DNA of 64,000 nt, taken from a virus. The stretch is taken from positions 64,001 to 128,000 of IMG/VR virus record IMGVR_UViG_3300045988_138996; one strand, 5' to 3'. The notes under the pieces were generated by a model. That model was not told the origin of the DNA. It did not search any database and saw nothing but the letters and a program-made list of their open reading frames with translations. Positions 2,563-31,679 of this stretch are shown piece by piece (positions within the stretch are counted from its first letter, which is position 1; each line of letters starts with the position of its first letter). The position numbers were made by a program, and so were the translations under genes.

Positions 2563-2565
2563 TAA

Positions 2566-3321: not shown

Positions 3322-3324
3322 TAG

Positions 3325-3780
3325 ATGATTAATCCAATTAAGTATGCAGGATCAATGATTAAAGGTAAAGGATCGACTGCAAGTAAAATGCTTTGGGAAA
3401 ATAAAGGTAATGCTGTAGCTACTGGTATTTTTTCAACGATGACATATAATAGTGCTCTTGACGAAGGAAAATCTAAAGGCGAAGCTTTTGGTGAAGCAGC
3501 GTTTGATGCTGCATTAAATTTAGGCTTTGGTTTTGTTCCTGGTATGTTATTACAGGGAGCTTATTATGGTGGTCCTGCGTTAGTAGGACTTGCTAATGAT
3601 TTAGCTGCTCAAGGTCGTCAAGAAGCACAACAGTCATATCGACCATTTGCTTGGACTAATCCAGTAAATTCCCAACAGTATGCAACAATGAGACAGGCAG
3701 GAATGGCCATCGCTCAGCAATCTCAATATAGTTTACAAACAACTATGATGGGTAATGAAGGTAAAGCATTCCATAAATAA
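3325..3780 (+). CDS. hypothetical small protein with hydrophobic Gly-rich core
   Basis: 151-aa ORF. The GFGFVPGMLLQGAYYGGPALVGLA segment suggests membrane or virion-internal behaviour. Confidence 0.5.
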   Translation: MINPIKYAGSMIKGKGSTASKMLWENKGNAVATGIFSTMTYNSALDEGKSKGEAFGEAAFDAALNLGFGFVPGMLLQGAYYGGPALVGLANDLAAQGRQEAQQSYRPFAWTNPVNSQQYATMRQAGMAIAQQSQYSLQTTMMGNEGKAFHK

Positions 3781-3782
3781 TT

Positions 3783-5303: not shown

Positions 5304-5709
5304 AACATTGCCAGCCCCATATGTTCAGTAATGAGCATATGCTAAACAGGAGTTAAACCGGGGAAGAACTTTAAGAGCTCGTTAAACTACAACGTAATTA
5401 GAAATGATAAGCGTGAATGTTGCGAAAGCTGAAAAAATTAACGAGATGATAATATGGTTAAATCCTAAGTTATCGTAAACAAGAGTTTGTTCCGGTAGGA
5501 ATGTCCGTATAGGACAACCTCTAACGACTATCCGATTGCGTCGGAGTACCTTTTATAATAAAGGGAAAAATACCTGGTCCCACTATGTGGGATTAACATA
5601 TAGTCTGTTCACGTTCTGTAATGGAAGTGCTATGAATTAACATAGGTTATTTAAATGATAAACATTATTAAAAAAATGCTGGCGGGCTGATTCTGGTTGG
5701 AGTGTATAT

Positions 5710-5738
5710 TTGACATTTTAAATGTAATATAGTATTAT
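5710..5738 (+). promoter_or_regulatory. sigma70-like promoter for the intron 1 endonuclease gene
   Basis: TTGACA (5710-5715), 17-nt spacer, TATTAT (5733-5738). About 40 nt upstream of ATG 5776. Confidence 0.55.
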
Positions 5739-5775
5739 AATAATATAAATATTTTATAATACGAGGTACTTTAAA

Positions 5776-6726
5776 ATGGAAGAAAAACTTCAACGAATAT
5801 TAAATCTTTTATCTGAAGGAAAAAATTCAGAACAAATTTCATTAATTGTTTTTAAGACAAAAAATTGTGTTCAATTTAATCGATTTTGTTCTGAAAATAA
5901 TATTGATTTAAAACAATATAAAGCATTCAAATATATGGATAAAGAATGGCTTTCAGAACAATTAAAAAAATATAATAACAGTCCTACTATTTTGGCTAGA
6001 GAACTTAACTTATCATTAACTTCTGTAAATCGATATGCAATAGAATTTGGATTAAGAAAACCTAAAAAATCTATTGCATCAGTAAATCCTATAAATGAAA
6101 AATATTTTGATGAAGTGGATAATTTTAAAAAAGCCTATTGGCTTGGTTTTATTATGGCTGATGGTTATACTTATAAAACTCCTAATCGTGAAAAATATGA
6201 ATTAGCGATTAAAATTAAGTCTACAGATATTGATCATTTAAAAGAATTTGCTAAGGATGTTGAATTTCCAGAAGAAAAAATTGCTATAGGCTCTGGCAAA
6301 AGAAATGGCAATATTAATTATTATTGCCAATTAAGAACATATAATACACATTTAGTGACAACTGTTATGCATAAGCATAAAATTGTTCAAAATAAAACTT
6401 ATGTGCAATGTTTACCAGACAGTATTCCAAAAGAATATATCTCTGATTTTATTAGAGGATATTGGGATGGTAATGGCACTCTTAAAAAAGCCGGTTGGTC
6501 TGCATGTACAATGTCTTATCAATTAATAGAATCTTTTGTTAAATATTTTGATGAAAATAATATTGAATATACTTTAAGAAAAGAATTATGTAAAAGTGGG
6601 AACTATTTACATCTAATAAGAATAAGAAGTAAATCACATGATACTTTTGTTAAATTAATTTATCCTCCAGAAAAATATGCTTTAAAAAGAAAATATGATT
6701 TAATATATACGAGTCCACAGAATTAA
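5776..6726 (+). CDS. LAGLIDADG homing endonuclease with N-terminal tandem HTH modules (intron-encoded)
   Basis: Two LAGLIDADG motifs (YWLGFIMADGY; DFIRGYWDGNGT). Two N-terminal HTH-like repeats (NSEQISLIVFKTKNCV...; SPTILARELNLSLTSVNRYAIEFGL). Visibly more AT-rich than the flanking exons. Confidence 0.85.
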   Translation: MEEKLQRILNLLSEGKNSEQISLIVFKTKNCVQFNRFCSENNIDLKQYKAFKYMDKEWLSEQLKKYNNSPTILARELNLSLTSVNRYAIEFGLRKPKKSIASVNPINEKYFDEVDNFKKAYWLGFIMADGYTYKTPNREKYELAIKIKSTDIDHLKEFAKDVEFPEEKIAIGSGKRNGNINYYCQLRTYNTHLVTTVMHKHKIVQNKTYVQCLPDSIPKEYISDFIRGYWDGNGTLKKAGWSACTMSYQLIESFVKYFDENNIEYTLRKELCKSGNYLHLIRIRSKSHDTFVKLIYPPEKYALKRKYDLIYTSPQN

Positions 6727-7024
6727 TTTCTGTGAATATAACTTAATTGCTGGGAACCCCTTAGAGCTTTTGATACCGAAGTGTAACAATTCAAAAGATT
6801 GGGCAATCAGCAGCGAAATCTTATTTTTTTAAATAAGATACGTTCAACGACTATCCCTTGGCTACCGCGTTAAAAATTAGCAATAGGAGTACGGCCTAAG
6901 TAGGCGGGTGAAATTCCCTTAATTGGAAATGGTTATCTTTAATTTAATTAAAGAAGATATAGTCTGGCCTAGTATGAAAATACTAGAAGGATTTAACGGT
7001 AACGGTTAAATTCATAACAAAGCG

Positions 7025-7184
7025 TGGATCTCTCTCGATGAAATGGATTATCTCGGCGAAGGTGACTTCGATACGATTTATGCGTTGTGTATGGAACGTG
7101 ATACGATCGGTATGACATGTTCTTCTACACCGACTGGTCGTAGATCGAAATTTTTCGATATATGTACCAAGAAGGAACTCGGGT
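7025..7184 (+). CDS. terL: terminase large subunit, exon 2
   Basis: Encodes WISLDEMDYLGEGDFDTIYALCMERDTIGMTCSSTPTGRRSKFFDICTKKELG, i.e. Walker B (LDE) and an SST coupling-motif-like segment. No start codon or RBS of its own. The 3' boundary is uncertain (7179-7190). Confidence 0.7.
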
Positions 7185-7209
7185 TAAAATAAATAAATTA
7201 GGTTTTTTA

Positions 7210-7238
7210 TAGCAATTCCATCCAATATATGGTAATAT
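7210..7238 (+). promoter_or_regulatory. extended -10 promoter candidate for the intron 2 endonuclease gene
   Basis: TAGCAA (7210-7215), then TGgTAATAT (TG at 7230-7231, -10 hexamer at 7233-7238). About 45 nt upstream of ATG 7284. Confidence 0.4.
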
Positions 7239-7283
7239 ATAATTGTAGTTATTTTACATATATTAATAAAAGGAATTGTTACT

Positions 7284-8387
7284 ATGATTAATGAAGATGA
7301 ATTGAGAAGTAAATTAGAAGAAAAATCTGTAGCTCAAATAGCTAAAGATTATAATTGTTCAGAAAATACGATTAGAAGAGCAATGAAGAAGTTTGGATTA
7401 ATAAAAACTTCAAAGAAACCATATCAAAATAAAGAAATATTATTAGATATGTTGCAGACAAAAACAGTTCAAGAAATTGCAGATTATTTTAATGTTGATA
7501 ATCATACTATTTCTAGATGGATCAATAAAAATAATATATCTTTTAATGATAAAAAACTTTATAGAAATAAAGCTTGGCTTGAACAAAAATTAAAAGAATT
7601 TAATGGTTCTTTATCTGCTATATCTAAAGAAACAGGATATAAAAAAGACACAATGCTTGAATGGTGTTATAAGTTTAATTTAAAACACACACCTGATTTT
7701 AATAAAAAATATAATTTAAATATTGATTATTTTAAAAATATTGATTCTGAAATAAAAGCATATTATCTTGGTTTTGGTATGGCTGACTTTGGAATTAGCA
7801 AAGATTGTTATTCTTTTGAATTTAGATTAAAAAAAGATGATAAATATATTATTGAAAAATTAGCAAAAGAATTAAATTATACTGCTGATTTGTATCATTT
7901 TAAAGACAGTATTCGAGAAGGATATTCATTAAGAATTTCTTCAAAAGAAATATGTAAAGATTTAATTTATCATGGAATTGTTCCAAATAAGTCAGGAAAA
8001 GAAGTTTTGCCAAATACTGTTTCAAAAGAATTAATAAAACACTTTATTCGAGGTTTTATTGATGGAGATGGATATATTGGTGGTATAAAAGATAAAACTC
8101 TTGCTATTTGTAGTATGTCTTATAATATATTGTTATCAATTAAATTATTTTTAGAAAAAGAATTAAATATAAAAAAATATAAAATTAAACCAACATTAAA
8201 AGAAAGTGGAAATATTCTATATTATTATAATATATATGGTGATTCTTTTATTAAAGTTCTTGATTATTTATATAAAGATTCAACAATATATTTAATTAGA
8301 AAACATGATAATTATTTAATTCATTTGAATAAAGATATTAATCGTAAAAATAAAAAACTTAACAAGGCTCCATTATTAAGTAATTAA
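7284..8387 (+). CDS. LAGLIDADG homing endonuclease with three N-terminal HTH repeats (intron-encoded)
   Basis: LAGLIDADG motifs YYLGFGMADFG and HFIRGFIDGDGY. Three HTH-like repeats (SVAQIAKDYNCSENTIRRAMKKFGL; TVQEIADYFNVDNHTISRWINKNNI; SLSAISKETGYKKDTMLEWCYKFNL). Confidence 0.85.
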   Translation: MINEDELRSKLEEKSVAQIAKDYNCSENTIRRAMKKFGLIKTSKKPYQNKEILLDMLQTKTVQEIADYFNVDNHTISRWINKNNISFNDKKLYRNKAWLEQKLKEFNGSLSAISKETGYKKDTMLEWCYKFNLKHTPDFNKKYNLNIDYFKNIDSEIKAYYLGFGMADFGISKDCYSFEFRLKKDDKYIIEKLAKELNYTADLYHFKDSIREGYSLRISSKEICKDLIYHGIVPNKSGKEVLPNTVSKELIKHFIRGFIDGDGYIGGIKDKTLAICSMSYNILLSIKLFLEKELNIKKYKIKPTLKESGNILYYYNIYGDSFIKVLDYLYKDSTIYLIRKHDNYLIHLNKDINRKNKKLNKAPLLSN

Positions 8388-8606
8388 TAATTGCAAATCT
8401 TTTGAACTGCTGGAACGTCCGTTAGGAAGATCAGCAGCGAAATCTTTAATTTTTTAAAGAAACGTTCAACGACTATCCTCGTGGTGAGGAGTAGGGTCAA
8501 GCGACTCGAAGCGGAAGATATCCTTTTAATAGGATAAAGATATAGTCTGAGCTATGTAGCAATACATAGAAGGTTGTAAGTAGCGATTACAATCGTAACA
8601 AAACTG

Positions 8607-8928
8607 TCCAAGAGCATTATCACCCGACTCAACATAACCCCATGTGGTCGGATGCGATGGAAGAAGAATTTAGAAATACATACGATAAAAACGCATATGA
8701 TCACGAAGTATTGGCAGAGTTTGGTGTCGAAGAAGCCGGCGTATTCGATAAAGATAAAGTCGAAGAAGCGACACAAATCGACAACTATGCTTATTTCGAT
8801 CGAGATAAATATAAACCTGTTCGTTCTATGATGGATGATAGTAATGTAAAAGAAATACATATACTACCAGAAGGACGAACTACATATTATCCTAATGTAT
8901 TTAGATGTATGGGTGTGGATTGGGATTT
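8607..8928 (+). CDS. terL: terminase large subunit, exon 3
   Basis: Encodes ...FQEHYHPTQHNPMWSDAMEEEFRNTYDKNAYDHEVLAEFGVEEAGVF...RCMGVDWD, the start of the nuclease domain (GVD). The ATG at 8642 is internal. Both boundaries are approximate (start 8581-8607, end 8926-8929). Confidence 0.65.
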
Positions 8929-8958
8929 TAGGATCATTGGAGTTGATCGGAAAGTTTT

Positions 8959-8987
8959 TTGACAGATCTTTATTTTTGTTGTAATAT
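8959..8987 (+). promoter_or_regulatory. sigma70-like promoter for the intron 3 endonuclease gene
   Basis: TTGACA (8959-8964), 17-nt spacer, TAATAT (8982-8987). ATG at 9035. Confidence 0.55.
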
Positions 8988-9034
8988 AATAGTATAATAA
9001 ATTAATATTTTATTTTTAAATAATAGGAATTATT

Positions 9035-10009
9035 ATGCTATATAAAAATGAACAATATTTAAAAGAAGCTGTTAAAACAAAAACCAATAGTCAAATTGCA
9101 AAAGAGAATAATATTAGCGCAGATACAGTAACATATTGGCTGAGAAAATATAATATAAAAAAATATGAAGAAAAAGCTCCTTATATGGACAAAGCATATA
9201 TGGCTGAATTATACAATAAGTATAAAAGTGGAAATAAAATTTCTAAATTATTAAATTGCAATGAAAAAACAATATATGCTTGGTTGGAAAAACACGGAAT
9301 AGATACTTCAGAAACTGGTAGCCAAGGAGCTAGAAAACATTTTTATAATGAAAATTATTTTAAAAAAATAGACACTGAAAGAAAAGCTTATTTTTTAGGT
9401 TTTATACTTGCTGATGGATGTGTTTATTTTGGAACAAATAAAAATTCATATAGATTTCAAATGAATTTACAGGCACAAGATAGATATATATTAGAAGAAC
9501 TTCAAAAAGATATTGAATCTGATTATAAAATTCAAGATAAACAATTTGGATATAGTAAAAATGGTGATCCAATTTTAATTTCTTTATTAAAAATTAATTC
9601 ATCTAAATTATGTGAAGATCTAATGAATCTTGGAGTTGTTCCTAGAAAATCTATGAGACAAGAAATGAAAAAAGATTTAATTCCTGATAAGTTGATTAAA
9701 CATTTTATTCGTGGTTACTTTGATGGAAACGGATCTTGTTCTATAAGAAAAAATTCAATCTCTTTAGATTTTTTAGGTAACAAAACAATATGTTTGCAAA
9801 TTGATGAGTATTTAAAATCAAATAAAATAAATAAAAATGTTCTATATGGGAACAAAAAAAATGAATTATATGGTTTAAGAATAAATAATACAGATAATAA
9901 AATTTTATTATATTATTATTTATATAAAGATGCTACTATTTACTTAAAGCGTAAAAAAGAAAAATTTGACAAATTTCTCCAATGTAAAAAAAGTCCTCTT
10001 ATTAAGTAA
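9035..10009 (+). CDS. LAGLIDADG homing endonuclease with two N-terminal HTH repeats (intron-encoded)
   Basis: LAGLIDADG motifs YFLGFILADGC and HFIRGYFDGNGS. HTH repeats TNSQIAKENNISADTVTYWLRKYNI and GNKISKLLNCNEKTIYAWLEKHGI. Confidence 0.85.
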   Translation: MLYKNEQYLKEAVKTKTNSQIAKENNISADTVTYWLRKYNIKKYEEKAPYMDKAYMAELYNKYKSGNKISKLLNCNEKTIYAWLEKHGIDTSETGSQGARKHFYNENYFKKIDTERKAYFLGFILADGCVYFGTNKNSYRFQMNLQAQDRYILEELQKDIESDYKIQDKQFGYSKNGDPILISLLKINSSKLCEDLMNLGVVPRKSMRQEMKKDLIPDKLIKHFIRGYFDGNGSCSIRKNSISLDFLGNKTICLQIDEYLKSNKINKNVLYGNKKNELYGLRINNTDNKILLYYYLYKDATIYLKRKKEKFDKFLQCKKSPLIK

Positions 10010-10228
10010 TTAATAAGTAATAAACTGGTTGAATTGCTGGAATATCCTAAATGGACAATCAGCAGCCAAGTCTCTAGTAGAGAAAGGTTCAACGACTATC
10101 CTTGTATAAGGAGTAGGATCAAGCGATCCGAAGTGGCCAGCAACCTAGTAATAGGTCGAAGATATAGTCTAATCTATATAGTAATATATAGCAGCTTAAA
10201 AGCGTATTAAGTTTAGCGAACTTAATAG

Positions 10229-10421
10229 AATATACATGAAATCACAAGCCCCAACATCTATACTTATACTTGAATACGATCAAGTATTTAATAAATTTAG
10301 AGTTATTAATAGAACAGAAATCGAATCGTCTGAATTTACATTCGATAAAGCTGTTAAAAAGATAATTGATTTAAATGCTATTTATAACCCTAGCTATATT
10401 TATATAGACAGAGGATCTGGT
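10229..10421 (+). CDS. terL: terminase large subunit, exon 4
   Basis: Encodes ...KSQAPTSILILEYDQVFNKFRVINRTEIESSEFTFDKAVKKIIDLNAIYNPSYIYIDRGSG (RNase H-like nuclease strand pattern). It ends at ggt|aaa. The start is approximate (10203-10229). The track tail KYLPYIL* is intron read-through. Confidence 0.65.
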
Positions 10422-10685
10422 AAATATTTGCCCTATATATTATAAGTGAATTATATAATATATATGCAGTGTGGTATTAAGCGAGAAGCCTAAGTTAATT
10501 AATTAATATGGTAACTCGAACCGAAGACTTAATTAAATTAAGTCAGGGGCAGAGCATAGTAAGTGAAAAGATATAATCTTGCCAAGAGACCGCACCATAC
10601 ATTCACAATACGTATGAAAAAGTATGCCGACCTTATAGGAAACTATAAGAACTAGGAGATAAAAAGCTCCTAGGATAACAACGTG
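10422..10685 (+). ncRNA. ORF-less intron 4 of terL (264 nt, probably a compact group I intron)
   Basis: The contiguous guide atatttgcc (10424-10432) pairs with the exon 5 start gaatat (10686-10691) and the exon 4 end ggt (10419-10421, G-U at the splice site). The intron follows U and ends in G (10685). The junction restores ...IDRGSG|EYQMESL... in frame. It has an S-like aagatataatct but no clear canonical P/Q/R. Confidence 0.65.
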
Positions 10686-11264
10686 GAATATCAGATGGAA
10701 TCTTTAAAGATTTACGGTAAACAACATCCTGAAACCGGACTCGATAAAAAAGTTAAAGGTTGGATGTTCTCCGAAAAAATCGATGTACAAGATCCTGTCA
10801 CTGGTACTTTAGAAAAGAAACATTTAAAACCATTTATGGTGAATCAATTATCGATATTAATTGAACGCGGTAATCTTATATTGAGTCCTTGGGACGCACA
10901 TATATATAAACAATTAATTGATTATCGTGTCGAAAAAATTACGGCGGCAGGTGTTCCTGTTTATAACAGTGATAACGAGCACTTTGTCGATGCTTTGGGT
11001 TTAGCTTATTTAGCGTTCGTTGAACATTTTCCAGAACTTACTAAGTTAGTTAAAAAAGCATCGTATGAAGCCGTCTATTCATTTAATAGTGGTAATTCTC
11101 TACCACTATATGAAAAACGAGATCTTGAAAATCCATGGTCTAATGAAAAGAAACAATATGAATCAGTAGACGAAGCATGGGAAAAAGTTCCGCTTAACGA
11201 TTCGTTTAATAGACGTACGTCTAGAAAACCTTTAGGCGGAATGTTTAAAAGGACATTATTTTAA
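10686..11264 (+). CDS. terL: terminase large subunit, exon 5 (C-terminal nuclease domain)
   Basis: EYQMESLKIYGKQHPETGL...NSDNEHFVDALGLAYLAF has the typical TerL C-terminal acidic D..D..al pattern. The GTG at 10683 in the track is not a real start. Confidence 0.75.
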   Translation, partial: EYQMESLKIYGKQHPETGLDKKVKGWMFSEKIDVQDPVTGTLEKKHLKPFMVNQLSILIERGNLILSPWDAHIYKQLIDYRVEKITAAGVPVYNSDNEHFVDALGLAYLAFVEHFPELTKLVKKASYEAVYSFNSGNSLPLYEKRDLENPWSNEKKQYESVDEAWEKVPLNDSFNRRTSRKPLGGMFKRTLF

Positions 11265-17905: not shown

Positions 17906-19126
17906 ATGAAAATCGAAATGAAAGAATTTGTTAATTCTCTTAAAGAACAACGTGCTGAAGTGACTAAAGCCGGTCAAGAAGCTGGTTGGTCCCCTGAAAA
18001 AATGCAAGAATCTTTGAGAAAATATGATATTCTCGAAGACGTTGTTGCTCGTATGAACAAACAACCTAGCAATAAATCTTTCAGCATTAAAGAAACAATT
18101 ATGACAACTGATGTTGTCGATTTGGTTCCTCGTATCATCGAAACTCGTATGATCGAAGCTGAAGACACTCAATCTGTTATCTCTCCATTCTTCACAAAAA
18201 TTCAATCCGACAAAACTAGTGGTACCGTTGTAGTACCTATTATCGGTGAATTGCAAGCACACGAAGTTTCCGAAGCTGGTGCTTACAACGATGAAGCAGT
18301 AGAAATCAACACTCTTCAATACAACTCCATCGAAATTCGTCCTAAGAAAATCGGTCTTAAAGTTACGTTATCTGAAGAAGTTATCATGGATTCCTACTGG
18401 GATATCATGGAAGCTAACTTGTCCCGTATCGGCGGTGCAATGGCTCGTTACAAAGACGAATGGTGTGCTCGTGAGTTCTCTGAACATGGTCACGTAGTAT
18501 TTGATAACTCTTTAGGTGCTCAAAATCCTGACGCTATGACAAGTGGTCTTGGTGAAGATTCTCTTCCTAACGGTACTCTTTCCGTTGAAGACTTCATGTC
18601 TATGTGCTTGGCATTGATGGCAAATGATAAGACACCAACAGACGTTATCATGCATCCACTTTGCTGGTTAGTATTCGCTCGTAACGCAATGGTAGGTCAA
18701 GGCTTAACTTTCGGTGCTATGGGTGCTATGAATGTTAATCCATTCGGCACAACTCAAGGTACTCCTGGTTTCGCTGGCTTGTCTAACAACATGGGTCCTC
18801 AAAAATTCATCTTGAATGAATCTCAAGCAATGTTTAACTTGCCTATGCCAGTTAACATTATCTTGAGCCCTCGTGTTAAATTTGATAAACAAAACAAAAC
18901 ATTTGATATGTACGCTATCGATCGCAACAACATTGGTGCTATCGTACAACGTGAAGATTTGTCTATTGAAAAATGGACTAACCCAGAAACTGATGTACGT
19001 ATCATCAAAGCAAAAGAACGCTATGGCGTTGGTATCATGGATAATGGTAAAGGTATCGCAGTGGCTAAAAACATTTCCGCTATGCCTTCCTTCCCTCGTC
19101 CAACTGCAATTCGTATTCAAGAATAA
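17906..19126 (+). CDS. major capsid protein (HK97-fold type)
   Basis: 406 aa. N-terminal coiled delta-like segment (KEFVNSLKEQRAEVTKAG...). Right size and position after the protease-scaffold. Biased codon usage. Followed by a strong terminator. Confidence 0.65.
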   Translation: MKIEMKEFVNSLKEQRAEVTKAGQEAGWSPEKMQESLRKYDILEDVVARMNKQPSNKSFSIKETIMTTDVVDLVPRIIETRMIEAEDTQSVISPFFTKIQSDKTSGTVVVPIIGELQAHEVSEAGAYNDEAVEINTLQYNSIEIRPKKIGLKVTLSEEVIMDSYWDIMEANLSRIGGAMARYKDEWCAREFSEHGHVVFDNSLGAQNPDAMTSGLGEDSLPNGTLSVEDFMSMCLALMANDKTPTDVIMHPLCWLVFARNAMVGQGLTFGAMGAMNVNPFGTTQGTPGFAGLSNNMGPQKFILNESQAMFNLPMPVNIILSPRVKFDKQNKTFDMYAIDRNNIGAIVQREDLSIEKWTNPETDVRIIKAKERYGVGIMDNGKGIAVAKNISAMPSFPRPTAIRIQE

Positions 19127-23837: not shown

Positions 23838-26800
23838 ATGGCGTACTCTTTCAAAGAGGAAATCCTCCGCGATCTTCCTGGTGTGTTTGTCGAAGTCAAT
23901 TCTGTAAAGAAAAAACTTTATGACGACAGCCAATTCGGTACAACTGACGCAGTGCTTTGTATCGGTACTGCATTCGATGGTCCTAACGGTGTTCCTGTGC
24001 CTATTTATGATCCATCTTATGCAACATATACTTATGGCGATACTTATAATCGCGAAACTAAACGTGAAGTAGACTTAACAGCTACATTGGCTGATGCATA
24101 TAATTCCGGTTGCCGTACTTTGTATGGTTTCCGTATCGGTGGTTCTGAAGCTCAAAAAGATTTTAAATTGCGTTCTGACGATACTCTTCGTTTCCGTGTA
24201 AAATCTCGCTTCCCATCTAACAAAGCTAAACAAGTATACTTTACTTTCGATAATACTCCAGGTCAAGAAGTTCTTACTATCTATAAACCTGTATCTAAAG
24301 CGACAACTTACGAACGTTACAATGCTATGATTGATAACGAAGAAGAAATGATTAAAGTTGAAATTCCTTTGGGCCTTATGGGTGCTGGCTTTACTGCCGA
24401 TACTCCTATCTCCGAAGTAATTCGTCATATCAATAACTTTCCTCGTAACAATGTTGTTACTTTGTCTATCGTAAATAAAAAAGGTCAAGATGTTACACTT
24501 CGTAAAGATTCTTACGAATTAGCTCTTGGTTCTATTTTCCCTGGTACATACTTCTTAGGTCGTAAACGCTCCTTAGTACCTTGCCGTACAGAAGTTCGTA
24601 CTCATGTAATCAAATCTAAAAAATCTCCAAAACCTTTCGGTTCCTTTACTGGTAAATATTTCCATACTCTTCGTATTAATACAGACGTTAATGCTGAATA
24701 TCCTATTTACTCTGTAAGTGATAAAGATTTGAACGAAGCCTTCACTACTGTAGGCTTGAAAATGTATACTCATAATGATTATCTTCGTACTCCTGGTGCA
24801 TCTGCATTAGCATTCGAAGAAGATGATAACGATTATGAAGATACTAATATGACTAACTTCCAAAAATACATGAAGTTAGGTTCTGGCTTTGCTATTACAG
24901 CAACAGCTTATCCTCGTACAAATTCTACTGGTCAATATTTGACTCCTCGTGTAAAAGAATCTGACGTTAAAGATAAACAATACGTAGTATCTATTGGTGA
25001 AGGTGCATACTCTGTATTGCAAAACGCTGATATGCCTTATCGTGTATTGGGCGCTCAAATTTGTGCCGATACTGTAATTGGCGGTCGCCTTCCTAAACCA
25101 AAAGATTTCTTAAAAGCATTCCCTATCGATGCTGTTATGGTTAATACTGTAGCAGGTGGTGCTCCTGTAGTCGATACCGAAATGTTTAAAATAACTCCTG
25201 TAGTTAATGTTAAAGATACTAAACATTCTCCACGTTCTTATAAATTTAGCTTTGCTAAAGTAGATAATGCTGCAGAAATTACTGACGAAAACATTTATCA
25301 AAACGAAGTATTTACAGTTATCCCTTCTGTAGCTAATGAAGCTGCTTTGGATTTAGATCATAAAACTTATGAAGCTGGTCAAACATTCTACTTTGAAGAC
25401 ACTAAAGAAGTGAAATCTATTACGTTCGATGGTAAGCTTCAAAATGCTGTTTCTCCACATCAAAAATTCAAACACTTCGTTACGAAAGATAAAATTATCG
25501 AAGCAGAACCAGCAACTGGTAATACTGTAACATTTAAAGAAATCGCATCTCTTGCTGATCTTCAATATGATACAGCTATGAATGGTTTGTTGACAGATGC
25601 TGATGCAACGACTGCTGCATACTATGCAACGACTGCTGCTGCTGCTACTGCAACTGCTGCTAATGCTAAATACGTATTACTTTCTGTTAATGACGTATTA
25701 TGTGTTGGCAAATATGATGCTGGCGCTGTAACTCCTATCGGTGAATATGACATCTTAACAGATAAAGATTCTCGTGACGATAAAGTCGTTACTTATATTG
25801 AAAACTTCGATTGCGTAGACAACCGTGTTATCATTTCCGTAACAGACTTCAACTATCGTACTGTAGCAGAATTTATTTCTGACTTAAAAGATAACGTTAA
25901 CTTCACTGATAACTTTACTGTGGAATTGACTGATAATGGTATCGTTGAAAAAGATGCTCTTATCGAAGAAGTGTTAGAACCTGTATTGGTTGGCGGCAAA
26001 GTTGCGTTAGCTACTTTGGCTAAAGACCGTACTATCGATTACGATTATACTATGCGTATTCCTTATCGTACTCCTGATAACTTCGCTCGTCAATTGGCAC
26101 AACATTGCTTGTATACAGAATTAAAAACTGCTCATACTCATGGTTTGATCGGTGTTGAACGTATCTCTGACTACACATTGTCTGGCGTCGAACAAAAATT
26201 CCAAGATTTGAATAGTTTAAATCTTAACCTAGAATTGAAACGTGGTAACGGTCGTTCTGTAATCGATGACGACGGTGCTCCTGTCGATATCGGCCGTTCT
26301 ATTTCTTGTACATTCTTCCAAAACAATGTACCAGTTTATAATTCTACTTACGCATATGTAGGTAACGGTGCTGCAGCTTATGCTGGTATGGTTTCCGCAT
26401 TGCCTGTAGAACAATCTCCTACGAACCAAAAAATCGGCATTTCTCCATTGTTTGAATTAACAGCTTCTCAATTATCTAACTTAACTTCTAAAGGTATTGT
26501 TACAGTTAAGAATACATTTACTCGTGGTTATGTAATTACAGATGGCTGTACAATGGCAGATCCAACTGATGCATTGTCTCGTCTTAATAGTGTTCGTATC
26601 ATCGACGCTGTTGAACGTGCTATTCGCCGTGTTTGTGAACCATTTATCGGTAAACAAAATACAATCTCCGTTCGTAACTCTATCCAAACAGGTTTGACAT
26701 CTGAGTTGAATAAACTTAAAGGTGTATTGTTATATGACTACTTATTCGAAATTGCTAATGACGTAACTGCTCTTCAATATACTTATATTGATATCAATTA

Positions 26801-26870
26801 CACTATTATGCCATTTAACGAAATTCGTCAAATCAATAACTACATTCAAATTCGTCAACCTGGTACCTAG
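23838..26870 (+). CDS. tail sheath protein (unusually large, 1010 aa)
   Basis: The N-terminal LPGVFVEVNS...TDAVLCIGTAFDGPNG fits the sheath N-terminal pattern (pGVyvee...a.vG.a..Gp). The C-terminal KGIVTVKNTFTRGYVITDGCTMA...LNSVRIIDAVERAIRRVCEPFIGKQN fits the sheath C-terminal domain pattern. Biased codon usage. Confidence 0.75.
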   Translation: MAYSFKEEILRDLPGVFVEVNSVKKKLYDDSQFGTTDAVLCIGTAFDGPNGVPVPIYDPSYATYTYGDTYNRETKREVDLTATLADAYNSGCRTLYGFRIGGSEAQKDFKLRSDDTLRFRVKSRFPSNKAKQVYFTFDNTPGQEVLTIYKPVSKATTYERYNAMIDNEEEMIKVEIPLGLMGAGFTADTPISEVIRHINNFPRNNVVTLSIVNKKGQDVTLRKDSYELALGSIFPGTYFLGRKRSLVPCRTEVRTHVIKSKKSPKPFGSFTGKYFHTLRINTDVNAEYPIYSVSDKDLNEAFTTVGLKMYTHNDYLRTPGASALAFEEDDNDYEDTNMTNFQKYMKLGSGFAITATAYPRTNSTGQYLTPRVKESDVKDKQYVVSIGEGAYSVLQNADMPYRVLGAQICADTVIGGRLPKPKDFLKAFPIDAVMVNTVAGGAPVVDTEMFKITPVVNVKDTKHSPRSYKFSFAKVDNAAEITDENIYQNEVFTVIPSVANEAALDLDHKTYEAGQTFYFEDTKEVKSITFDGKLQNAVSPHQKFKHFVTKDKIIEAEPATGNTVTFKEIASLADLQYDTAMNGLLTDADATTAAYYATTAAAATATAANAKYVLLSVNDVLCVGKYDAGAVTPIGEYDILTDKDSRDDKVVTYIENFDCVDNRVIISVTDFNYRTVAEFISDLKDNVNFTDNFTVELTDNGIVEKDALIEEVLEPVLVGGKVALATLAKDRTIDYDYTMRIPYRTPDNFARQLAQHCLYTELKTAHTHGLIGVERISDYTLSGVEQKFQDLNSLNLNLELKRGNGRSVIDDDGAPVDIGRSISCTFFQNNVPVYNSTYAYVGNGAAAYAGMVSALPVEQSPTNQKIGISPLFELTASQLSNLTSKGIVTVKNTFTRGYVITDGCTMADPTDALSRLNSVRIIDAVERAIRRVCEPFIGKQNTISVRNSIQTGLTSELNKLKGVLLYDYLFEIANDVTALQYTYIDINYTIMPFNEIRQINNYIQIRQPGT

Positions 26871-26892
26871 TAGTTTTTAATTAAAGAAGGAG

Positions 26893-26913
26893 GGGGCGGA
26901 TAACCTCCGCCCC
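26893..26913 (+). terminator. GC-rich hairpin after sheath (terminator or attenuator)
   Basis: ggggcgga (26893-26900) / tccgcccc (26906-26913). The trailing tract attattt is only weakly T-rich. Overlaps an aaggagg sequence. Confidence 0.4.
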
Positions 26914-26925
26914 ATTATTTAACAC

Positions 26926-27126
26926 ATGGCTTACTCTAATAACTCTGGTGTAACTACAGCGTCTGAATACACTCGTAGTTATACTACTTTTTCCGGCTGT
27001 GATATCGTAGCTACATTCGGTTCCGAAGTAGTAGCTGAAATTCAAGGTATTACAGTTTCTATTAATCGTGAAAAGGCTCCAGTGTACACCTTCGGGAGTG
27101 CAGAGCCTCGTTCTATCTCGAGAGGT
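26926..27126 (+). CDS. tail tube protein, exon 1
   Basis: Immediately follows the sheath. Homologous to the N-terminus of the intact paralogue at 30429 (YTRSYTTFSGCDIVA... versus YTRTYTSYSGCDIVA...; REKAPVYTFG versus QEKAPVRTLG). Ends ...SISRG at ggt|aaa. The track tail NSAFASPLQ* is intron read-through. Confidence 0.75.
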
Positions 27127-28063
27127 AAAAATTCCGCGTTTGCTTCTCCTTTGCAGTAATGCAATGTATAATTAAACTCTGTGATATGCTGGAAACCCCT
27201 TAGAGCCTTTAGTACCAAAGTGTGACAATCTAAAGGATTGGGCAATCAGCAGGCAGCGTAAGCGCCTCAACGACTATCCGTAAGGAGTACATCATAACAG
27301 CTGATGGAAGTGCAGAGCTCCCTTTTTCGTGTCATATGTGGCATTGCAAATAATTTTTCTATGTAATATAATAATAGAAAAGGAGATGATCACATATGAA
27401 GTATAAATATAATTTAGATTTTTTTAAAAATGATTCACCTGAAAAATATTATTTCTATGGTTTTTTAGCGTCAGATGGTTATATTTCAGATGATAAAATT
27501 AGCATTGGAATAAATGTTAAAGATAGAGAAATATTAGAAAAATTTCAAAAATTAATTTGTCCAGAAAAACCAATTTATGAAAAGACACAAACAAATTCTT
27601 TAAAATTTGAAATAACAAATAAGGATTTGTCAAAAAAATTAAAAAAATATTTTTCTATGATAACCAATAAAAAATATGAAGAAATCAGGTTTCCAAATGT
27701 TCCAGAAAAATATCTTAAAGATTTTATCCGTGGTGTAATTGATGGAGATGGAAATATCGATACAACAAAAGGATATCAAAAAGACAAAATTTATATTGGA
27801 GCAAGATTAAGAATATTAGGAAATAAGGAATTCTTAATAGAATTAAATGAAAAAACTAAATTATTATATCCACATAATACCAATGCAGTAAATAAAAAAG
27901 GAAAAGAAAATGTTTATGTGATAACATATAATTTTAAAACTGCTAGAGAATTATTAAGAATAATATATTATGATGGATGTTTATCGTTAACAAGAAAATT
28001 TAATCGATCTAGGGATGAAGATATAGTCTCAACAATTACGAAAGTTATTGATAAGAAAAAATG
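27127..28063 (+). mobile_element. group I intron 1 of the tube gene (937 nt), with a LAGLIDADG ORF between R and S
   Basis: The guide cgcgtttgcttctc (27135-27148) pairs with the exon 2 start aaacgcg (28064-28070, 7 bp) and the exon 1 end gagaggt (27120-27126, 7 bp including G-U at the splice site). P atatgctggaaacc 27184-27197, Q caatcagcagg 27243-27253, R cctcaacgactatcc 27265-27279, S aagatatagtct 28018-28029. The last base is G (28063). Confidence 0.85.
27344..27372 (+). promoter_or_regulatory. sigma70-like promoter for the tube-intron endonuclease gene
   Basis: TTGCAA (27344-27349), 17-nt spacer, TATAAT (27367-27372). Then aaaggag and ATG 27396. Confidence 0.55.
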
Positions 28064-28064
28064 A
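27396..28064 (+). CDS. LAGLIDADG homing endonuclease (short form without HTH repeats, intron-encoded)
   Basis: Motifs YYFYGFLASDGY and DFIRGVIDGDGN. The last ~16 codons overlap the ribozyme S element, and the TGA stop (28062-28064) straddles the 3' splice site. Confidence 0.8.
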   Translation: MKYKYNLDFFKNDSPEKYYFYGFLASDGYISDDKISIGINVKDREILEKFQKLICPEKPIYEKTQTNSLKFEITNKDLSKKLKKYFSMITNKKYEEIRFPNVPEKYLKDFIRGVIDGDGNIDTTKGYQKDKIYIGARLRILGNKEFLIELNEKTKLLYPHNTNAVNKKGKENVYVITYNFKTARELLRIIYYDGCLSLTRKFNRSRDEDIVSTITKVIDKKK

Positions 28065-28177
28065 AACGCGGTATTGCTGGTACTATTGTATTCACATTGT
28101 TCGACCGTGATGCCCTTGTAGATGCTCTTGCTGTTCGTGCAGCTAAAGCAGCTTATTTCCAACGTATCGGCGGTGAT
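28064..28177 (+). CDS. tail tube protein, exon 2
   Basis: KRGIAGTIVFTLFDRDALVDALAVRAAKAAYFQRIGGD aligns to the paralogue segment GPRTIAGSMVFAVLDKHVIYEII. The 5' end is fixed by guide pairing. The 3' end is approximate (28174-28185). Confidence 0.7.
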
Positions 28178-28531
28178 TTGGCGGTAGCCTAGTCGGCATA
28201 TAAAGTAATTTGTATGTCTGCAAATATATGATAGTTTGTATTTGCACCGATTGGATCGAATTGCTGGGAAATCCTAAAGCTTAAAATACCTTAATGGTTG
28301 TGAAAACAGAAATAAATTTTAAGATGATATATGGTTAAAACCTAAGTATTATAATAATGGACAATCAGCAGCGAAGTCGCAATATTGCGAAACGTTCAAC
28401 GACTATCTCGTGAAGAGAGTAGGATAAAATGCTTTCCGAAGTGGTCCATCCCATACAGTGGGAAATGATATAGTCTATGCTTATATGAAAGTATAAGAAA
28501 AACAAATTTAGCAAATTTGTGTATAAAATAT

Positions 28532-28560
28532 TTGACAATAATTAATATCACCATTATAAT
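28532..28560 (+). promoter_or_regulatory. consensus sigma70 promoter for tnpB
   Basis: TTGACA (28532-28537), exactly 17 nt, TATAAT (28555-28560). Then gaaagga and ATG 28590. Confidence 0.65.
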
Positions 28561-28589
28561 ATTCTTATAAACAAGAAAGGATATTATAT

Positions 28590-29678
28590 ATGGAAAAAAG
28601 ATTTTTATTACAAATATATCCAACAAAAGAACAAGAAAAATTAATACAAAGAACATTTGGATGCGCAAGATTCGTTTATAATTATTTTTTAGATTATAGA
28701 ATAAAAAAATATAATGAAGAAAATATTTCTTTAACTGCTAATGATTGTAGTAAAATATTAACTTCATTAAAAAAAGAAAAAGAATTTTTGCAAATTCCAG
28801 ATAAATATGCATTACAAAATGTATTAAAAGATTTAGATATGGCTTATAAAAGATTTCAAAAAGGAATTGCGAATTACCCAAAGTTTAAATCTAGAAGTAA
28901 TTATAAGACATATAGAACAAATCGATCTGGTAATAAAATTAGATTTGTTTCTGATAATATAATTATTCTTCCTAAGTTAAGAGAAGTTAAGTTTAGGAAC
29001 AATATTGTTCCAGATGGCGAAATTGTGAATGTTGCAATTATACAAAAACCTTCTGGTAAATATTATGCGTCTGTTCTTTGTAGAAATTGCAAAGTAAAAA
29101 ATATTGAAAAAACTGGCAAAAGTGTTGGTATAGATTTAGGAATAAAAGATTATATTGTTACATCTGATGGACAAAAAATTCCAAATAATCATTTTCTAAA
29201 AAAGACAATATCTAAAATAAAGAAAATGCAAAAAGAATTTGATAGAAAAAAAGATGGTAGCAATAATAAAGAAAAATTAAGAATTAAAATAGCTAAACAA
29301 TATGAAAAACTAACAAATGCAAGAAAAGATTATATTCATAAACTTTCTATGAAATTAATAGAAGAATATGATGATATTTGCATTGAAGATTTAAAGATAA
29401 AAGATATGGTTAAAAATAAACTTTTGTCTTTTGATATAATGGATTGTTCATGGTATGAATTACGAAGACAGCTTGAATATAAAGCAAAATTCTATAATAA
29501 AAGAATTCATATTGTTGATAGATATTTTCCATCGAGTAAAAAATGTTCAGTTTGTGGTTATAAAAAAGAAGATCTTTCGCTTGATGATCGATTTTGGACT
29601 TGTCCAGATTGTAATACCACTCATGATAGAGATATAAATGCAGCTAAAAATATTCTTAAAGAAGGAATGAAAAATTAA
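28590..29678 (+). CDS. tnpB: TnpB (IS200/IS605-family OrfB, RuvC-type RNA-guided nuclease), intron-encoded
   Basis: 362 aa. OrfB N-terminal pattern (LLQIYPTKEQEKLIQRTFGCARFVYNYFL). RuvC I GIDLGIKDY (D at 29133-29135). RuvC II ICIEDLKIKDM (E at 29385-29387). Zinc ribbon CSVCGY...CPDCN. RuvC III HDRDINAAKNI (D at 29631-29633). No tnpA anywhere in the window. Confidence 0.9.
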   Translation: MEKRFLLQIYPTKEQEKLIQRTFGCARFVYNYFLDYRIKKYNEENISLTANDCSKILTSLKKEKEFLQIPDKYALQNVLKDLDMAYKRFQKGIANYPKFKSRSNYKTYRTNRSGNKIRFVSDNIIILPKLREVKFRNNIVPDGEIVNVAIIQKPSGKYYASVLCRNCKVKNIEKTGKSVGIDLGIKDYIVTSDGQKIPNNHFLKKTISKIKKMQKEFDRKKDGSNNKEKLRIKIAKQYEKLTNARKDYIHKLSMKLIEEYDDICIEDLKIKDMVKNKLLSFDIMDCSWYELRRQLEYKAKFYNKRIHIVDRYFPSSKKCSVCGYKKEDLSLDDRFWTCPDCNTTHDRDINAAKNILKEGMKN

Positions 29679-29774
29679 TTATTGTTGAACCGCAGGAATT
29701 GCGGAGATTGTCTTGAGACGTTTATCGTCAATAGAAATTTTATTTTATAAAAAATTCAGATTAACTATCAACCG
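29600..29774 (+). ncRNA. candidate omega-RNA (reRNA) scaffold overlapping the tnpB 3' end and the intron 3' end
   Basis: By analogy with IS200/605 elements, where the guide RNA scaffold spans the tnpB 3' end to the element right end. Local hairpins: ccgca (29690-29694) / tgcgg (29700-29704) and gacg (29717-29720) / cgtc (29726-29729). The extent is a guess. Confidence 0.35.
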
Positions 29775-30131
29775 TACACAATTACTGAATGGGACACAAA
29801 ATTAACTAACATGGTTGTTAATTCCTTGGGCGCTAACAACAGCAATAGCCAAGTAGCTTCCACTAACCCATTCAAAGTTACACAAAATGTAGCTATTCAA
29901 TCTACTCCAAAATATTCTGACGAAATTCCTCCATTCGACATTACATTGTCCTTTGCGAACGAATATGGTCAATCTGCAGTTATGGTTATCTATGGCTGTG
30001 AAATTTTGAACGAAGCTTCTAGCTTCTCTGTAGATTCTACTACTACTGATAAAGCTTGTACTTACATTGCTCGCTCTGTCGATTACTTGCAACCAGTAGA
30101 AAACAAATACTTGCTTGATAACAAGTACTAA
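29775..30131 (+). CDS. tail tube protein, exon 3
   Basis: YTITEWDTKLTNMVVNSLG...IPPFDITLSFANEYGQSAVMVIYGCEILNEASSF aligns to the paralogue LPNFDVTLSFANEYGRQSTISVYNCTIIDEGQIM. The frame is open from 29751. The ATG at 29811 is internal. The start is approximate (29775-29793). Confidence 0.7.
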   Translation, partial: YTITEWDTKLTNMVVNSLGANNSNSQVASTNPFKVTQNVAIQSTPKYSDEIPPFDITLSFANEYGQSAVMVIYGCEILNEASSFSVDSTTTDKACTYIARSVDYLQPVENKYLLDNKY

Positions 30132-30138
30132 TAAATTC

Positions 30139-30177
30139 GGCGAGGAAATTTTTTCCTCGCCTTTTATTTTTTTCTTA
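30139..30177 (+). terminator. rho-independent terminator after the tube gene
   Basis: ggcgaggaaa (30139-30148) / tttcctcgcc (30152-30161), followed by ttttattttttt. Confidence 0.8.
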
Positions 30178-30190
30178 GGAGACAATAGGC

Positions 30191-30439
30191 GTGAAAAAAT
30201 CTCAAGAAAATACTAATCAAATATTTCTGTATCTAAATCGTGGTTTACAAGATTACATTAATAGTTCTTTATTATCTGGTGAACATTCTAGTAATGTTAA
30301 GAAAGATATGGAAGAAATATGCTATAATATTATTAGTGAGCGTAATATTGAACTTAAAACGAACATTATTACGTTGATCAATAATAGAGTTCAACAATAT
30401 ATGAAATTATATAATTTAAAGGTGAAATATGCCAAATGA
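30191..30439 (+). CDS. hypothetical small protein
   Basis: 82-aa ORF with a GTG start after aggagac. Overlaps the next gene by 11 nt. Confidence 0.4.
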   Translation: MKKSQENTNQIFLYLNRGLQDYINSSLLSGEHSSNVKKDMEEICYNIISERNIELKTNIITLINNRVQQYMKLYNLKVKYAK

Positions 30440-31679
30440 TTTGTCTTTAGGTAATAAAGACGTGGTTCAAACCTCAAAGTATACGAGAACGTATACTTCT
30501 TATAGCGGGTGTGATATTGTAGCTTCTATTAATATTACGATTCCAGGTCAAGAAACAATTTCGAAAGTATTTGGGAGCCTACAAACATTCTCCTATAGTA
30601 TACATCAAGAAAAAGCTCCGGTAAGGACATTGGGCGATGTTAATGCTATCACGTATGTCGATGGCCCAAGAACAATTGCCGGCTCTATGGTATTTGCCGT
30701 ATTAGATAAACATGTTATCTATGAGATTATAGACGATGTATATAAAAAAGGCAATTATCAAAATAAACATTTTTTAATGGATGAATTACCTAACTTTGAC
30801 GTTACATTATCGTTCGCTAATGAATATGGACGTCAGTCTACTATTAGTGTGTATAATTGTACGATAATCGATGAAGGTCAGATTATGTCGATTAACGATA
30901 TCTTAACAGAAAATACATATCATTATTATGCGACCGATATCGATTATATGACAGAGTCTCAGAACTATTATACTCTTAATGAAAAAAGTATAATTGATTC
31001 TAATCCATGGTTAACAACTAATAATGCTAAGATTAAAACGCAAAATATTAAAGTACAATATGGCATCCCTGTATTAACATTATCTAAAGAAGGATATTAT
31101 TCTTTTAAGACATATATGGATGCTCTTAATAGAAAATATAAAAAGTTAGCCGATCAGTTTATGGGCGAAAAAGAATCTGAAAAGATGGCTCAGCTTAAAA
31201 AAGATTATTATAATCTTAGAACTGAAGCCGAACAATATTATCCTTCTCAAGCATTATTATCTAAGACACAAAAGAAAGTTCGTTTCTTAGAACGTAAACG
31301 TTTAAAAGTTAATAAAGAATACGATAATTTTAGAACATCATTATACACATCAAGACGTGACGTTCCTGATTATTCTAAGTTTAGAGTTAATGGTAAAGTT
31401 AAAAACGAATCTGAAATTCCGGACTATTCTAAATATAGATTAGATCCTAAAAAAGATAATTCTAACCTTCCTTCATATGATGACTTTAGAAAGAAAGAAA
31501 ATGATCGTCATGAGAAAAAAGATGATATTCCTGATTACTCTAACTTTAGAAAAAATCGTAATAAAACTGTTAAGGAAGAAGAAGCAACTCATTATAAATT
31601 AGATGAAAATGGTAACGTGGTTATTATAGATACACATATAGACAATAAAGGAGGCGACGATAATATTGAACACATCTAG
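30429..31679 (+). CDS. tube-like paralogue with a C-terminal repeat extension
   Basis: The N-terminal ~190 aa are colinear with the spliced tube gene (shared SGCDIVA, EKAPV, R.IAG..VF, FD(I/V)TLSFANEYG). The C-terminus carries four copies of [IVL]P(D/S)Y(S/D)(K/N/D)(F/Y)R at 31362-31550. Confidence 0.65.
   Translation: MPNDLSLGNKDVVQTSKYTRTYTSYSGCDIVASINITIPGQETISKVFGSLQTFSYSIHQEKAPVRTLGDVNAITYVDGPRTIAGSMVFAVLDKHVIYEIIDDVYKKGNYQNKHFLMDELPNFDVTLSFANEYGRQSTISVYNCTIIDEGQIMSINDILTENTYHYYATDIDYMTESQNYYTLNEKSIIDSNPWLTTNNAKIKTQNIKVQYGIPVLTLSKEGYYSFKTYMDALNRKYKKLADQFMGEKESEKMAQLKKDYYNLRTEAEQYYPSQALLSKTQKKVRFLERKRLKVNKEYDNFRTSLYTSRRDVPDYSKFRVNGKVKNESEIPDYSKYRLDPKKDNSNLPSYDDFRKKENDRHEKKDDIPDYSNFRKNRNKTVKEEEATHYKLDENGNVVIIDTHIDNKGGDDNIEHI

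Follow-up and report, generated by a model that had tools for sequence, protein, structure and literature searches.

How can a phage make its tail tube protein from a gene in which 687 of 3206 nt are coding sequence? The question is raised by positions 26926 to 30131 of a 64,000-nt stretch of viral DNA (positions 64,001 to 128,000 of IMG/VR virus record IMGVR_UViG_3300045988_138996), the whole of which we call the window. An earlier note, written from the letters of this DNA, had proposed that the gene directly after the tail sheath gene makes sense only when three pieces are joined, and that two different mobile introns lie between them. Our analysis supports a tube gene of three exons parted by two different mobile elements, both predicted to be self-splicing. 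The two are indeed distinct, and the second can be named more specifically than as a plain intron: by sequence, the first is a group I intron carrying a LAGLIDADG homing endonuclease gene, and the second an IStron made up of a group I ribozyme, a tnpB gene and a right-end tail. We think it very probable that the tube gene has taken up two independent selfish insertions and that both are removed as RNA, in which case the tube mRNA would need two splicing events. All features of the locus given below are on the plus strand.

Exon 1 (26926..27126) encodes codons 1-67, its last residues being SISRG and its final base U; reading on into the first insert meets a stop after 11 codons. Exon 2 (28064..28177) supplies codons 68-105, KRGIAG...RIGGD, and again ends in U, and exon 3 (29760..30131) begins INYQPYTITEW and encodes codons 106-228 and the stop. 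We set these boundaries by alignment with homologues and by blastn against a relative (L002) that is empty at both insertion sites, which we call B (insert 1) and C (insert 2). A search with the joined product matched 3235 proteins, mostly of about 210 aa and uninterrupted; among the matches listed, query coverage was 91-98% and identity 52-61%. The first two pieces, 26926-27126 and 28064-28177, are exactly those that the earlier note had claimed, and its SISRG-KRGIAG junction agrees with more than 3000 uninterrupted homologues. At the second junction all homologues read RIGGD-INYQP-YTITEW, five residues more than the join proposed there. INYQP is encoded by att aac tat caa ccg at 29760-29774, directly 5' of 29775, about where exon 3 had been said to begin; homologues and L002 put its start 15 nt earlier, at 29760, which corrects the junction peptide from IGGD-YTITEW to IGGD-INYQPYTITEW, the product from about 223 to 228 aa and the coding sequence from about 670 to 687 nt.

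The same comparison fixes the inserts. Window 28064-28177 corresponds to L002 6079-6192 and window 29760 onward to L002 6193 onward; because these flanks are contiguous in L002 (6192/6193), the second insert is exactly 28178-29759, and its boundary has no sliding ambiguity. The boundary of insert 1 can slide by 3 nt (AAA), an ambiguity settled by the group I rules of a U before the 5' site, a terminal G and P1 and P10 pairings. Each insert is preceded by U and terminated by G. The predicted spliced junctions read GAGAGGT followed by AAACGCGG and GGCGGTGAT followed by ATTAACTATC, and the predicted junction 30-mers are ATCTCGAGAGGT/AAACGCGGTATTGC for junction 1 and ATCGGCGGTGAT/ATTAACTATCAACC for junction 2. 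The first of these 30-mers would be diagnostic of splicing, since intron-less DNA alleles read TCTCGTGGTAAACGC instead. The predicted protein is of ~25 kDa, and its predicted tryptic peptide over junction 2 is IGGDINYQPYTITEWDTK.

Sister phages with an uninterrupted tube gene make this locus a clear natural example of a split gene. When we scanned IMG/VR with the corrected product of 228 aa, 59 loci emerged, whose exons we mapped by tblastn. In six contigs (L016-L021) the gene is a single uninterrupted open reading frame (ORF), 98-100% identical to the joined product over residues 1-228; for two of them (L016 and L017) the identity is 100%. The 684-nt gene carries between 0 and 3 inserts in the related contigs, at four insertion sites: site A after codon 53; site B after codon 67, with some contigs carrying both; site C after codon 105, occupied only in the window and in two relatives (L014 and L015); and site D near codons 156-160, which holds a group I intron (Rfam, 73.9 bits) in L072 only. 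One of the site-C relatives, the 228.8-kb contig L014, has the whole 3.46-kb arrangement in common with the window at 93% nucleotide identity. Measured against L014, the tube exons have a ratio of nonsynonymous to synonymous substitution rates (dN/dS) of 0.035, the LAGLIDADG gene one of 0.043 and tnpB one of 0.094, at a dS of 0.27-0.35 (0.27 for the tube), so the tube gene and both passenger ORFs are under purifying selection. Codon usage is biased, as the earlier note had observed, with an effective number of codons of 35.9 for the joined tube exons, similar to 32.5 for the sheath gene and 34.9 for a capsid-like gene. GC content is 0.27 and 0.26 in the inserts versus 0.40 in the exons, and the ORFs within the inserts have a GC of 0.22-0.24 and a third-position GC of ~0.10. 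The flanking terminators that had been described are also present as terminator-like hairpins: a GC-rich one between sheath and tube genes (26893..26913; 8 pairs, of which 7 are G-C, with a weak T tail), and one 3' of the tube gene (30139..30161) that resembles an intrinsic terminator and is followed by TTTTATTTTT.

Is the restored protein a tail tube protein? The sheath gene directly upstream (ORF 23838-26870, 1010 aa) matches the tail sheath family PHROG 16991 with an E of 6.6e-54. An AlphaFold model of the tube product has a predicted local distance difference test score (pLDDT) of 82.9 when built from a diverse alignment of 93 sequences, drawn from a representative search with 3114 matches at E<=0.001; a shallow alignment of 40 close homologues gave a poor model (pLDDT 48). 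All 50 of the listed Foldseek matches in the PDB are phage tail, neck or baseplate, contractile-injection-system or Hcp structures, and many are tube proteins, including those of phage 812, HFTV1, PVC/AFP, T4 and lambda (gpV); the best E is 8.7e-6, and the TM-scores by target of the top six are 0.53-0.69. The Pfam family Phage_tube_2 gave a weak, sub-threshold match only (E 0.007), and a profile search of PDB sequences with the tube protein gave no match. The modelled fold, together with the position next to the sheath gene, identifies this as the major tail tube gene. The family is labelled 'major head protein' in PHROG 9206, and RefSeq gives the homologues in 0305phi8-36 and ME3 the same label. 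Genes for portal, protease-like and capsid-like proteins are found upstream, and we think the label probably wrong because of the tube fold matches and the separate capsid-like gene at 17906-19126; these are at odds with a capsid protein identity. For annotation this means that the label is misleading and that gene callers see only fragments of the tube, for example BFVD entry A0A8S5RL34 (virus sp. ctEQ64, a 109-aa 'uncharacterized protein'), which is the exon 3 fragment at 99% identity.

The first insert, at site B (27127..28063, 937 nt, final base G), is by its sequence a group I intron that carries the LAGLIDADG gene in P8. Rfam scans of the whole window (at the gathering threshold) and of 3.5 kb (at E<=1) missed the ribozymes of both inserts, and narrow searches found them. 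For insert 1 the RF00028 model is matched in two parts, 27131-27401 with 32.0 bits (E 3.8e-6) and 28016-28048 with 21.0 bits, the latter covering P7' GAAGAUAUAGUC and P9. An ORF-less orthologue of 253 nt in L035, 96% identical to the 5' 220 nt (window 27103-27322), scores 67.3 bits versus a gathering score of 50. Site-B introns of relatives measure 931-946 nt with the ORF and 249-269 nt without it. The internal guide sequence, CGCGUUU-GCUUCUC, can be read at 27135..27148: GCUUCUC pairs with GAGAGGU of the 5' exon to form P1, with G.U at the splice site and a hairpin predicted at -9.9 kcal/mol (z -2.8), and CGCGUUU pairs with AAACGCG of the 3' exon to form P10. In the other intron variant the guide CACUUUU goes with the exon AAAAGAG, a covariation that supports P10. 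The P2 hairpin shows compensatory changes relative to L014, and the 3' end reads ...AAUG. Many variant-2 site-B introns (L026, L029, L037, L040 and others) seem to end in A, not G, with 3' ends ..GGTCCA or ..TTTTCA before AAAAGAGG, if exon 2 starts AAA AGA GGT.

The LAGLIDADG ORF (27396..28064, 222 aa) has two motifs in one chain, GFLASDGYI and GVIDGDGNI, and matches Pfam PF14528 with 29 bits versus a cut-off of 22.5 and the endonuclease family PHROG 4645 with an E of 1.1e-34. Comparison with L035 indicates that the ORF begins in the P8 loop (CUCCC[...]GGGAU) and continues through P8', P7' and P9; its TGA stop spans the 3' splice site. Upstream of it, a promoter-like site at 27344-27372 matches 10 of 12 consensus positions. 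Alleles that are contiguous at site B (L002 and L016-L021) differ synonymously in the flank, TCT CGT GGT versus TCG AGA GGT in the window, and over the flanking positions they read TCTCGTGGT against TCGAGAGGT. Co-conversion, selection for P1 pairing or escape of the target site would each agree with this difference. No match was found when 26800-30250 was compared by megablast with 50,697 phage records. Other classes of insert can be set aside: inteins by in-frame stop codons in the inserts, and group II introns since there was neither an Rfam match nor a reverse transcriptase ORF.

The second insert, at site C (28178..29759, 1582 nt, ending in TTCAG), is judged from its sequence to be an IStron of the CdISt1 type (IS200/IS605, group A). 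It is preceded by GGCGGTGAT and terminates in ...AAAATTCAG before ATTAAC, and it has an exact empty site, with no target duplication and with transposon ends that coincide with the splice sites. Abutting its left end is the pentanucleotide GTGAT (28173..28177), one mismatch from TTGAT and similar to a target or target-adjacent motif (TAM). The ribozyme core, P2-P9 (28192..28497), matches the full RF00028 model (1-253) with 56.3 bits, above the gathering score of 50 (E 8.1e-14), and P1 is formed by UGAU with GUCG (28192-28195), with G.U at the splice site. No ORF lies between ribozyme and tnpB. At 30 nt upstream of tnpB stands a predicted sigma-70-type promoter (28532..28560, TTGACA-17-TATAAT) that matches 12 of 12 consensus positions and suggests that tnpB and the omega RNA may be transcribed independently of the tube mRNA.

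The tnpB gene (28590..29678, 362 aa) encodes a predicted RNA-guided nuclease similar to that of ISDra2: residues 3-359 align with the ISDra2 TnpB structures 8exa and 8h1j (E 1.2e-77), and the RuvC D/E/D motifs (GIDLG, IEDL, HDRD) and zinc ribbon are intact. It matches Pfam PF07282, PF01385 and PF12323 (HTH_OrfB, OrfB_IS605 and Cas12f1-like TNB), NCBIfam guided_TnpB (NF040570) with 303 bits versus a cut-off of 100, and IS200_TnpB (NF038281) with 423.1 bits, just under the cut-off of 425. The 81 nt that follow (29679..29759) would form the right end and presumed omega-RNA scaffold, with hairpins at 29690-29704 and 29717-29729 and a terminal TCAG whose final G is the terminal G of the intron; a further short hairpin lies at 28180-28189. 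Compensatory changes keep the pairing of the right-end hairpins in L014 (CCGCA/TGCGG becomes CCGTA/TACGG, and GACG/CGTC becomes GACAC/GTGTC). The first 16-20 nt of exon 3 would be both guide and target of the omega RNA.

Related IStrons show the same architecture. In two relatives, L005 (~3331-5077) and L072 (~2354-4110), the group I intron at site B has an IStron of ~1.75 kb nested in it, at a point where the P3 strand of this outer intron is on one side and P4 on the other; the nested element follows CUCUGUGAU (CTCTGTGAT), its target being GTGAT, and ends in GTCAG. The nested ribozymes score 85.7 bits (L005) and 82.6 bits (L072) in Rfam, and each is accompanied by a 362-aa TnpB. Because this TnpB is only 44% identical to that of the window, two IStron lineages have invaded the tube gene. 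The arrangement in L005 and L072 is likely a group I twintron, whose removal would need ordered splicing. The isolated Clostridioides phage ES-S-0173-01 (CP067352) has a similar unannotated IStron after TTGAT, ending in GGTTCAG. A GAACCGYAGG...YRCGGRGAT motif after the tnpB stop is common to the window IStron and to the IStrons of L005, L072 and the Clostridioides phage.

Several points weigh against the view that two self-splicing elements are cleanly removed from the tube mRNA. In the window, insert 1 remains below the Rfam gathering score, its ORF splitting the model. For the IStron, a P10 pairing at the 3' splice site was sought by eye and none was found; the target is GTGAT and not the published TTGAT; and the 3' splice site is ~1260 nt from the ribozyme core, a distance that may make splicing inefficient or alternative. 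The window and L014 elements also lack the left- and right-end palindromes of the CdISt1 type, which we found subterminally in L005, L072 and L078; aligned with related IStrons, they have ~41 nt fewer at the left end and ~45 nt fewer at the right, palindromes included, and the omega-RNA function of the window copy is uncertain. No Pfam match to a Y1 transposase (tnpA) was found among ten window ORFs of 100-251 aa. In exact-pattern scans for the IStron left end, viral sequences gave only the L014 contig and metagenomes two chance matches only, and a scan of genome contigs for TnpB gave only proteins of 38-40% identity, from metagenome-assembled genomes of Ruminococcus and Clostridia. Because the palindromes are gone, no tnpA was found and the exact-pattern scans gave no further copies, TnpA-type transposition of the window copy seems doubtful. 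The lack of tnpA does not exclude it from the IStrons, since copies with tnpB alone have been published (Tourasse et al. 2014, PMC4227781).

Some of these points would suit a different reading of insert 2, in which a tnpB-only IS200/IS605 element lies beside or inside a short group I intron, splicing is partial, so that the mature mRNA is still disrupted, and the gene is restored only by excision of DNA. In this reading a proximal 3' splice site could lie near 28497, where the full Rfam model ends; tnpB has its own consensus promoter, and published IStrons trade splicing against omega-RNA production (bioRxiv 10.1101/2023.11.20.567912). Yet the empty-site comparison shows ribozyme, tnpB and tail to arrive or depart together, as a single unit of 1582 nt that leaves nothing behind, and this unit starts right after U and ends with the G of TCAG, as group A IStrons do (PMC4227781). 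The same order of ribozyme, tnpB and tail recurs in L005, L072 and phage ES-S-0173-01 at unrelated sites, and the tnpA that would excise the DNA was not found among the window ORFs that were searched. We consider partial splicing followed by DNA excision unlikely.

Splicing, like expression of the tube gene as a whole, is predicted here from sequence, and this has also to be weighed for the reading that the gene is a dead, insertion-disrupted pseudogene whose pieces are never joined, the tube being built from another gene or from a paralogue. Immediately downstream (30429-31679, 416 aa) there is such a paralogue, whose N- and C-terminal blocks are those of the tube protein, and the untypical ends of the IStron would suit a decayed locus. 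The colinearity that the earlier note had seen between joined product and paralogue holds, at 38% identity and with the SGCDIVA, EKAPV, R.IAG..VF and FD(I/V)TLSFANEYG blocks all found. At its C-terminus the paralogue is extended by a long stretch that is charged and repeat-like (PDYSKFR, PDYSKYR, PSYDDFR, PDYSNFR). However, it lacks a middle region of ~55 aa and is kept as a separate gene in all relatives examined, including those whose tube gene is intact. The three exons are all in frame, their joined product is identical to that of intact alleles, the tube dN/dS is low, and there is conservation, with compensatory changes, of both the ribozyme cores and the guide sequences. That the gene is dead is, in our judgement, very improbable.

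Metagenome assembly could in principle produce a similar picture, by fusing variants that have introns with variants that have none, or phage reads with host reads. The tube gene is highly polymorphic in the population, a case in which assemblers can err, and the base composition of the inserts differs from that of the exons. Against this, the architecture with sites B and C both filled is found in the independent contig L014, with 7% divergence spread over exons and inserts alike, and a third contig (L015) has the right-hand part of the arrangement with the same IStron at site C. The boundaries obey the group I rules exactly, and the exact-pattern scans gave no free-standing copy of the IStron elsewhere. 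An assembly artefact is thus hardly credible.

We therefore return to two insertions that are removed as RNA. In the mechanism that we infer, the late transcript would undergo two independent group I self-splicing reactions to give the tube mRNA. The guide sequence of insert 1 would align both exon ends through P1 and P10, and its LAGLIDADG enzyme would probably cut intron-less tube alleles of co-infecting sister phages, with repair copying the intron. Splicing of the IStron should restore GGD/INY exactly, because the transposon boundaries coincide with the splice sites. Splicing is probably what lets the window copy of the IStron persist; given a functional omega RNA, cutting of the empty site by TnpB, with recombination afterwards, may be a further means. 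This would make the site-C element an IStron that is past transposon mobility and is now a group I intron homing by means of RNA-guided TnpB, an idea that we regard as possible but rather doubtful. In such homing the omega RNA would read into exon 3 (ATTAACTATCAACCGT...) and target the IStron-free alleles of sister phages. Loci L001-L072 include 44 IStron-free alleles, of which 17 agree perfectly with the would-be guide over its first 16 nt; the upstream pentamer of these 17 is GTGAT in 1, GCGAT in 14 and GGGAT in 2; this pattern at site C could be TAM-escape variation relevant to susceptibility. If true, the idea would amount to RNA-guided intron homing, or to RNA-guided interference between phages.

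Other inserts occur at the tube gene and elsewhere. The site A insert (L023 ~5158-5481; L002 4992-6036) is present in more than 30 related contigs, and searching 381 nt gave no Rfam match for it even at E<=1; read as CCGGU/C...G/C, its ends agree with the group I rules. Elsewhere in the window, an intein together with three group I introns apparently splits the gene for the terminase large subunit (3783-11264, plus strand). In Pfam, ORF 3783-5345 matches Intein_splicing (E 5.7e-26) and LAGLIDADG_3, with terminase matches on both sides, and the introns are found by Rfam at 6692-6986, 8350-8569 and 9976-10191 (76.6-113.1 bits), each with a LAGLIDADG ORF before it (5776-6726, 7284-8387 and 9035-10009), two of which have helix-turn-helix domains. 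Three giant ORFs follow one another 3' of the tail genes (35447-58933), with lengths of 2067, 2569 and 3176 aa.

In one lineage, then, a 684-nt essential late gene is an insertion hot spot, with four sites and 0-3 inserts. Two unrelated IStron lineages, an IStron nested in the intron of two relatives and an end-trimmed, tnpB-only IStron are the more notable features. The filled and empty alleles form a natural set for testing the balance of IStron splicing and guide-RNA production. The same set suits tests of nuclease-biased inheritance or of interference between phages, as in the PhiPA3 case discussed below (PMC11620839).

How does the locus compare with known systems? Like CdISt1 of Clostridioides difficile, the window IStron has a 5' group I ribozyme, tnpB downstream on the same strand, ends that coincide with the (predicted) splice sites, no target duplication and a terminal TCAG; its target is one mismatch from TTGAT and would likewise form P1. 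For group A IStrons the published insertion points are those after TTGAT, ATTAT or TTTAT, with TCAG as the 3' end, and IStrons have already been published from the Clostridium phages c-st and D-1873 (PMC4227781); in the published elements a TTGAT TAM abuts the left end, splice sites equal transposon ends, and splicing is balanced against omega-RNA production (Zedaveinyte et al., bioRxiv 10.1101/2023.11.20.567912). Unlike CdISt1, the window element has GTGAT as its target, lacks ~41 nt of the left end and ~45 nt of the right end including the palindromes, and interrupts a major tail tube gene, that of a ~229-kb phage; the nearest IStron TnpBs compared here share only 44-49% identity with its TnpB. 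To ISDra2 TnpB (8exa, 8h1j, 8bf8) the window protein is similar over residues 3-359, in its RuvC motifs and zinc ribbon and in a putative TAM resembling the TTGAT type, and it differs in having no tnpA partner, an 81-nt right-end tail and a place inside a predicted self-splicing intron.

The group I introns of phage structural genes offer a second comparison. Landthaler and Shub reportedly described, in 1999, three introns in orf142 of phage Twort. As in such introns, an early stop follows the 5' splice site, presence varies among relatives and one gene may hold several. Unlike them, insert 1 has its LAGLIDADG ORF in P8, overlapping the 3' part of the ribozyme core, gave no megablast match in isolated phages and belongs to a population with four insertion sites. 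A tail tube gene with a group I intron is known from a prophage of Bacillus weihenstephanensis KBAB4 as well as B. cereus B4264 (Tourasse and Kolsto 2008, PMC2504315). PhiPA3 offers a further comparison: its intron-encoded endonuclease gp210 interferes with a phage that co-infects the host (Birkholz et al. 2024, PMC11620839). Both cases place an intron-borne nuclease in an essential gene of a jumbo phage whose sister phages have intron-less alleles that could be cut. PhiPA3, a nucleus-forming Pseudomonas phage, has a protein-only endonuclease within an RNA polymerase gene, whereas the window combines a LAGLIDADG enzyme and a predicted RNA-guided TnpB in a tail tube gene, read here from the DNA only. 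Tube-gene group I introns and phage IStrons have both been published, and the window locus adds to these known kinds.

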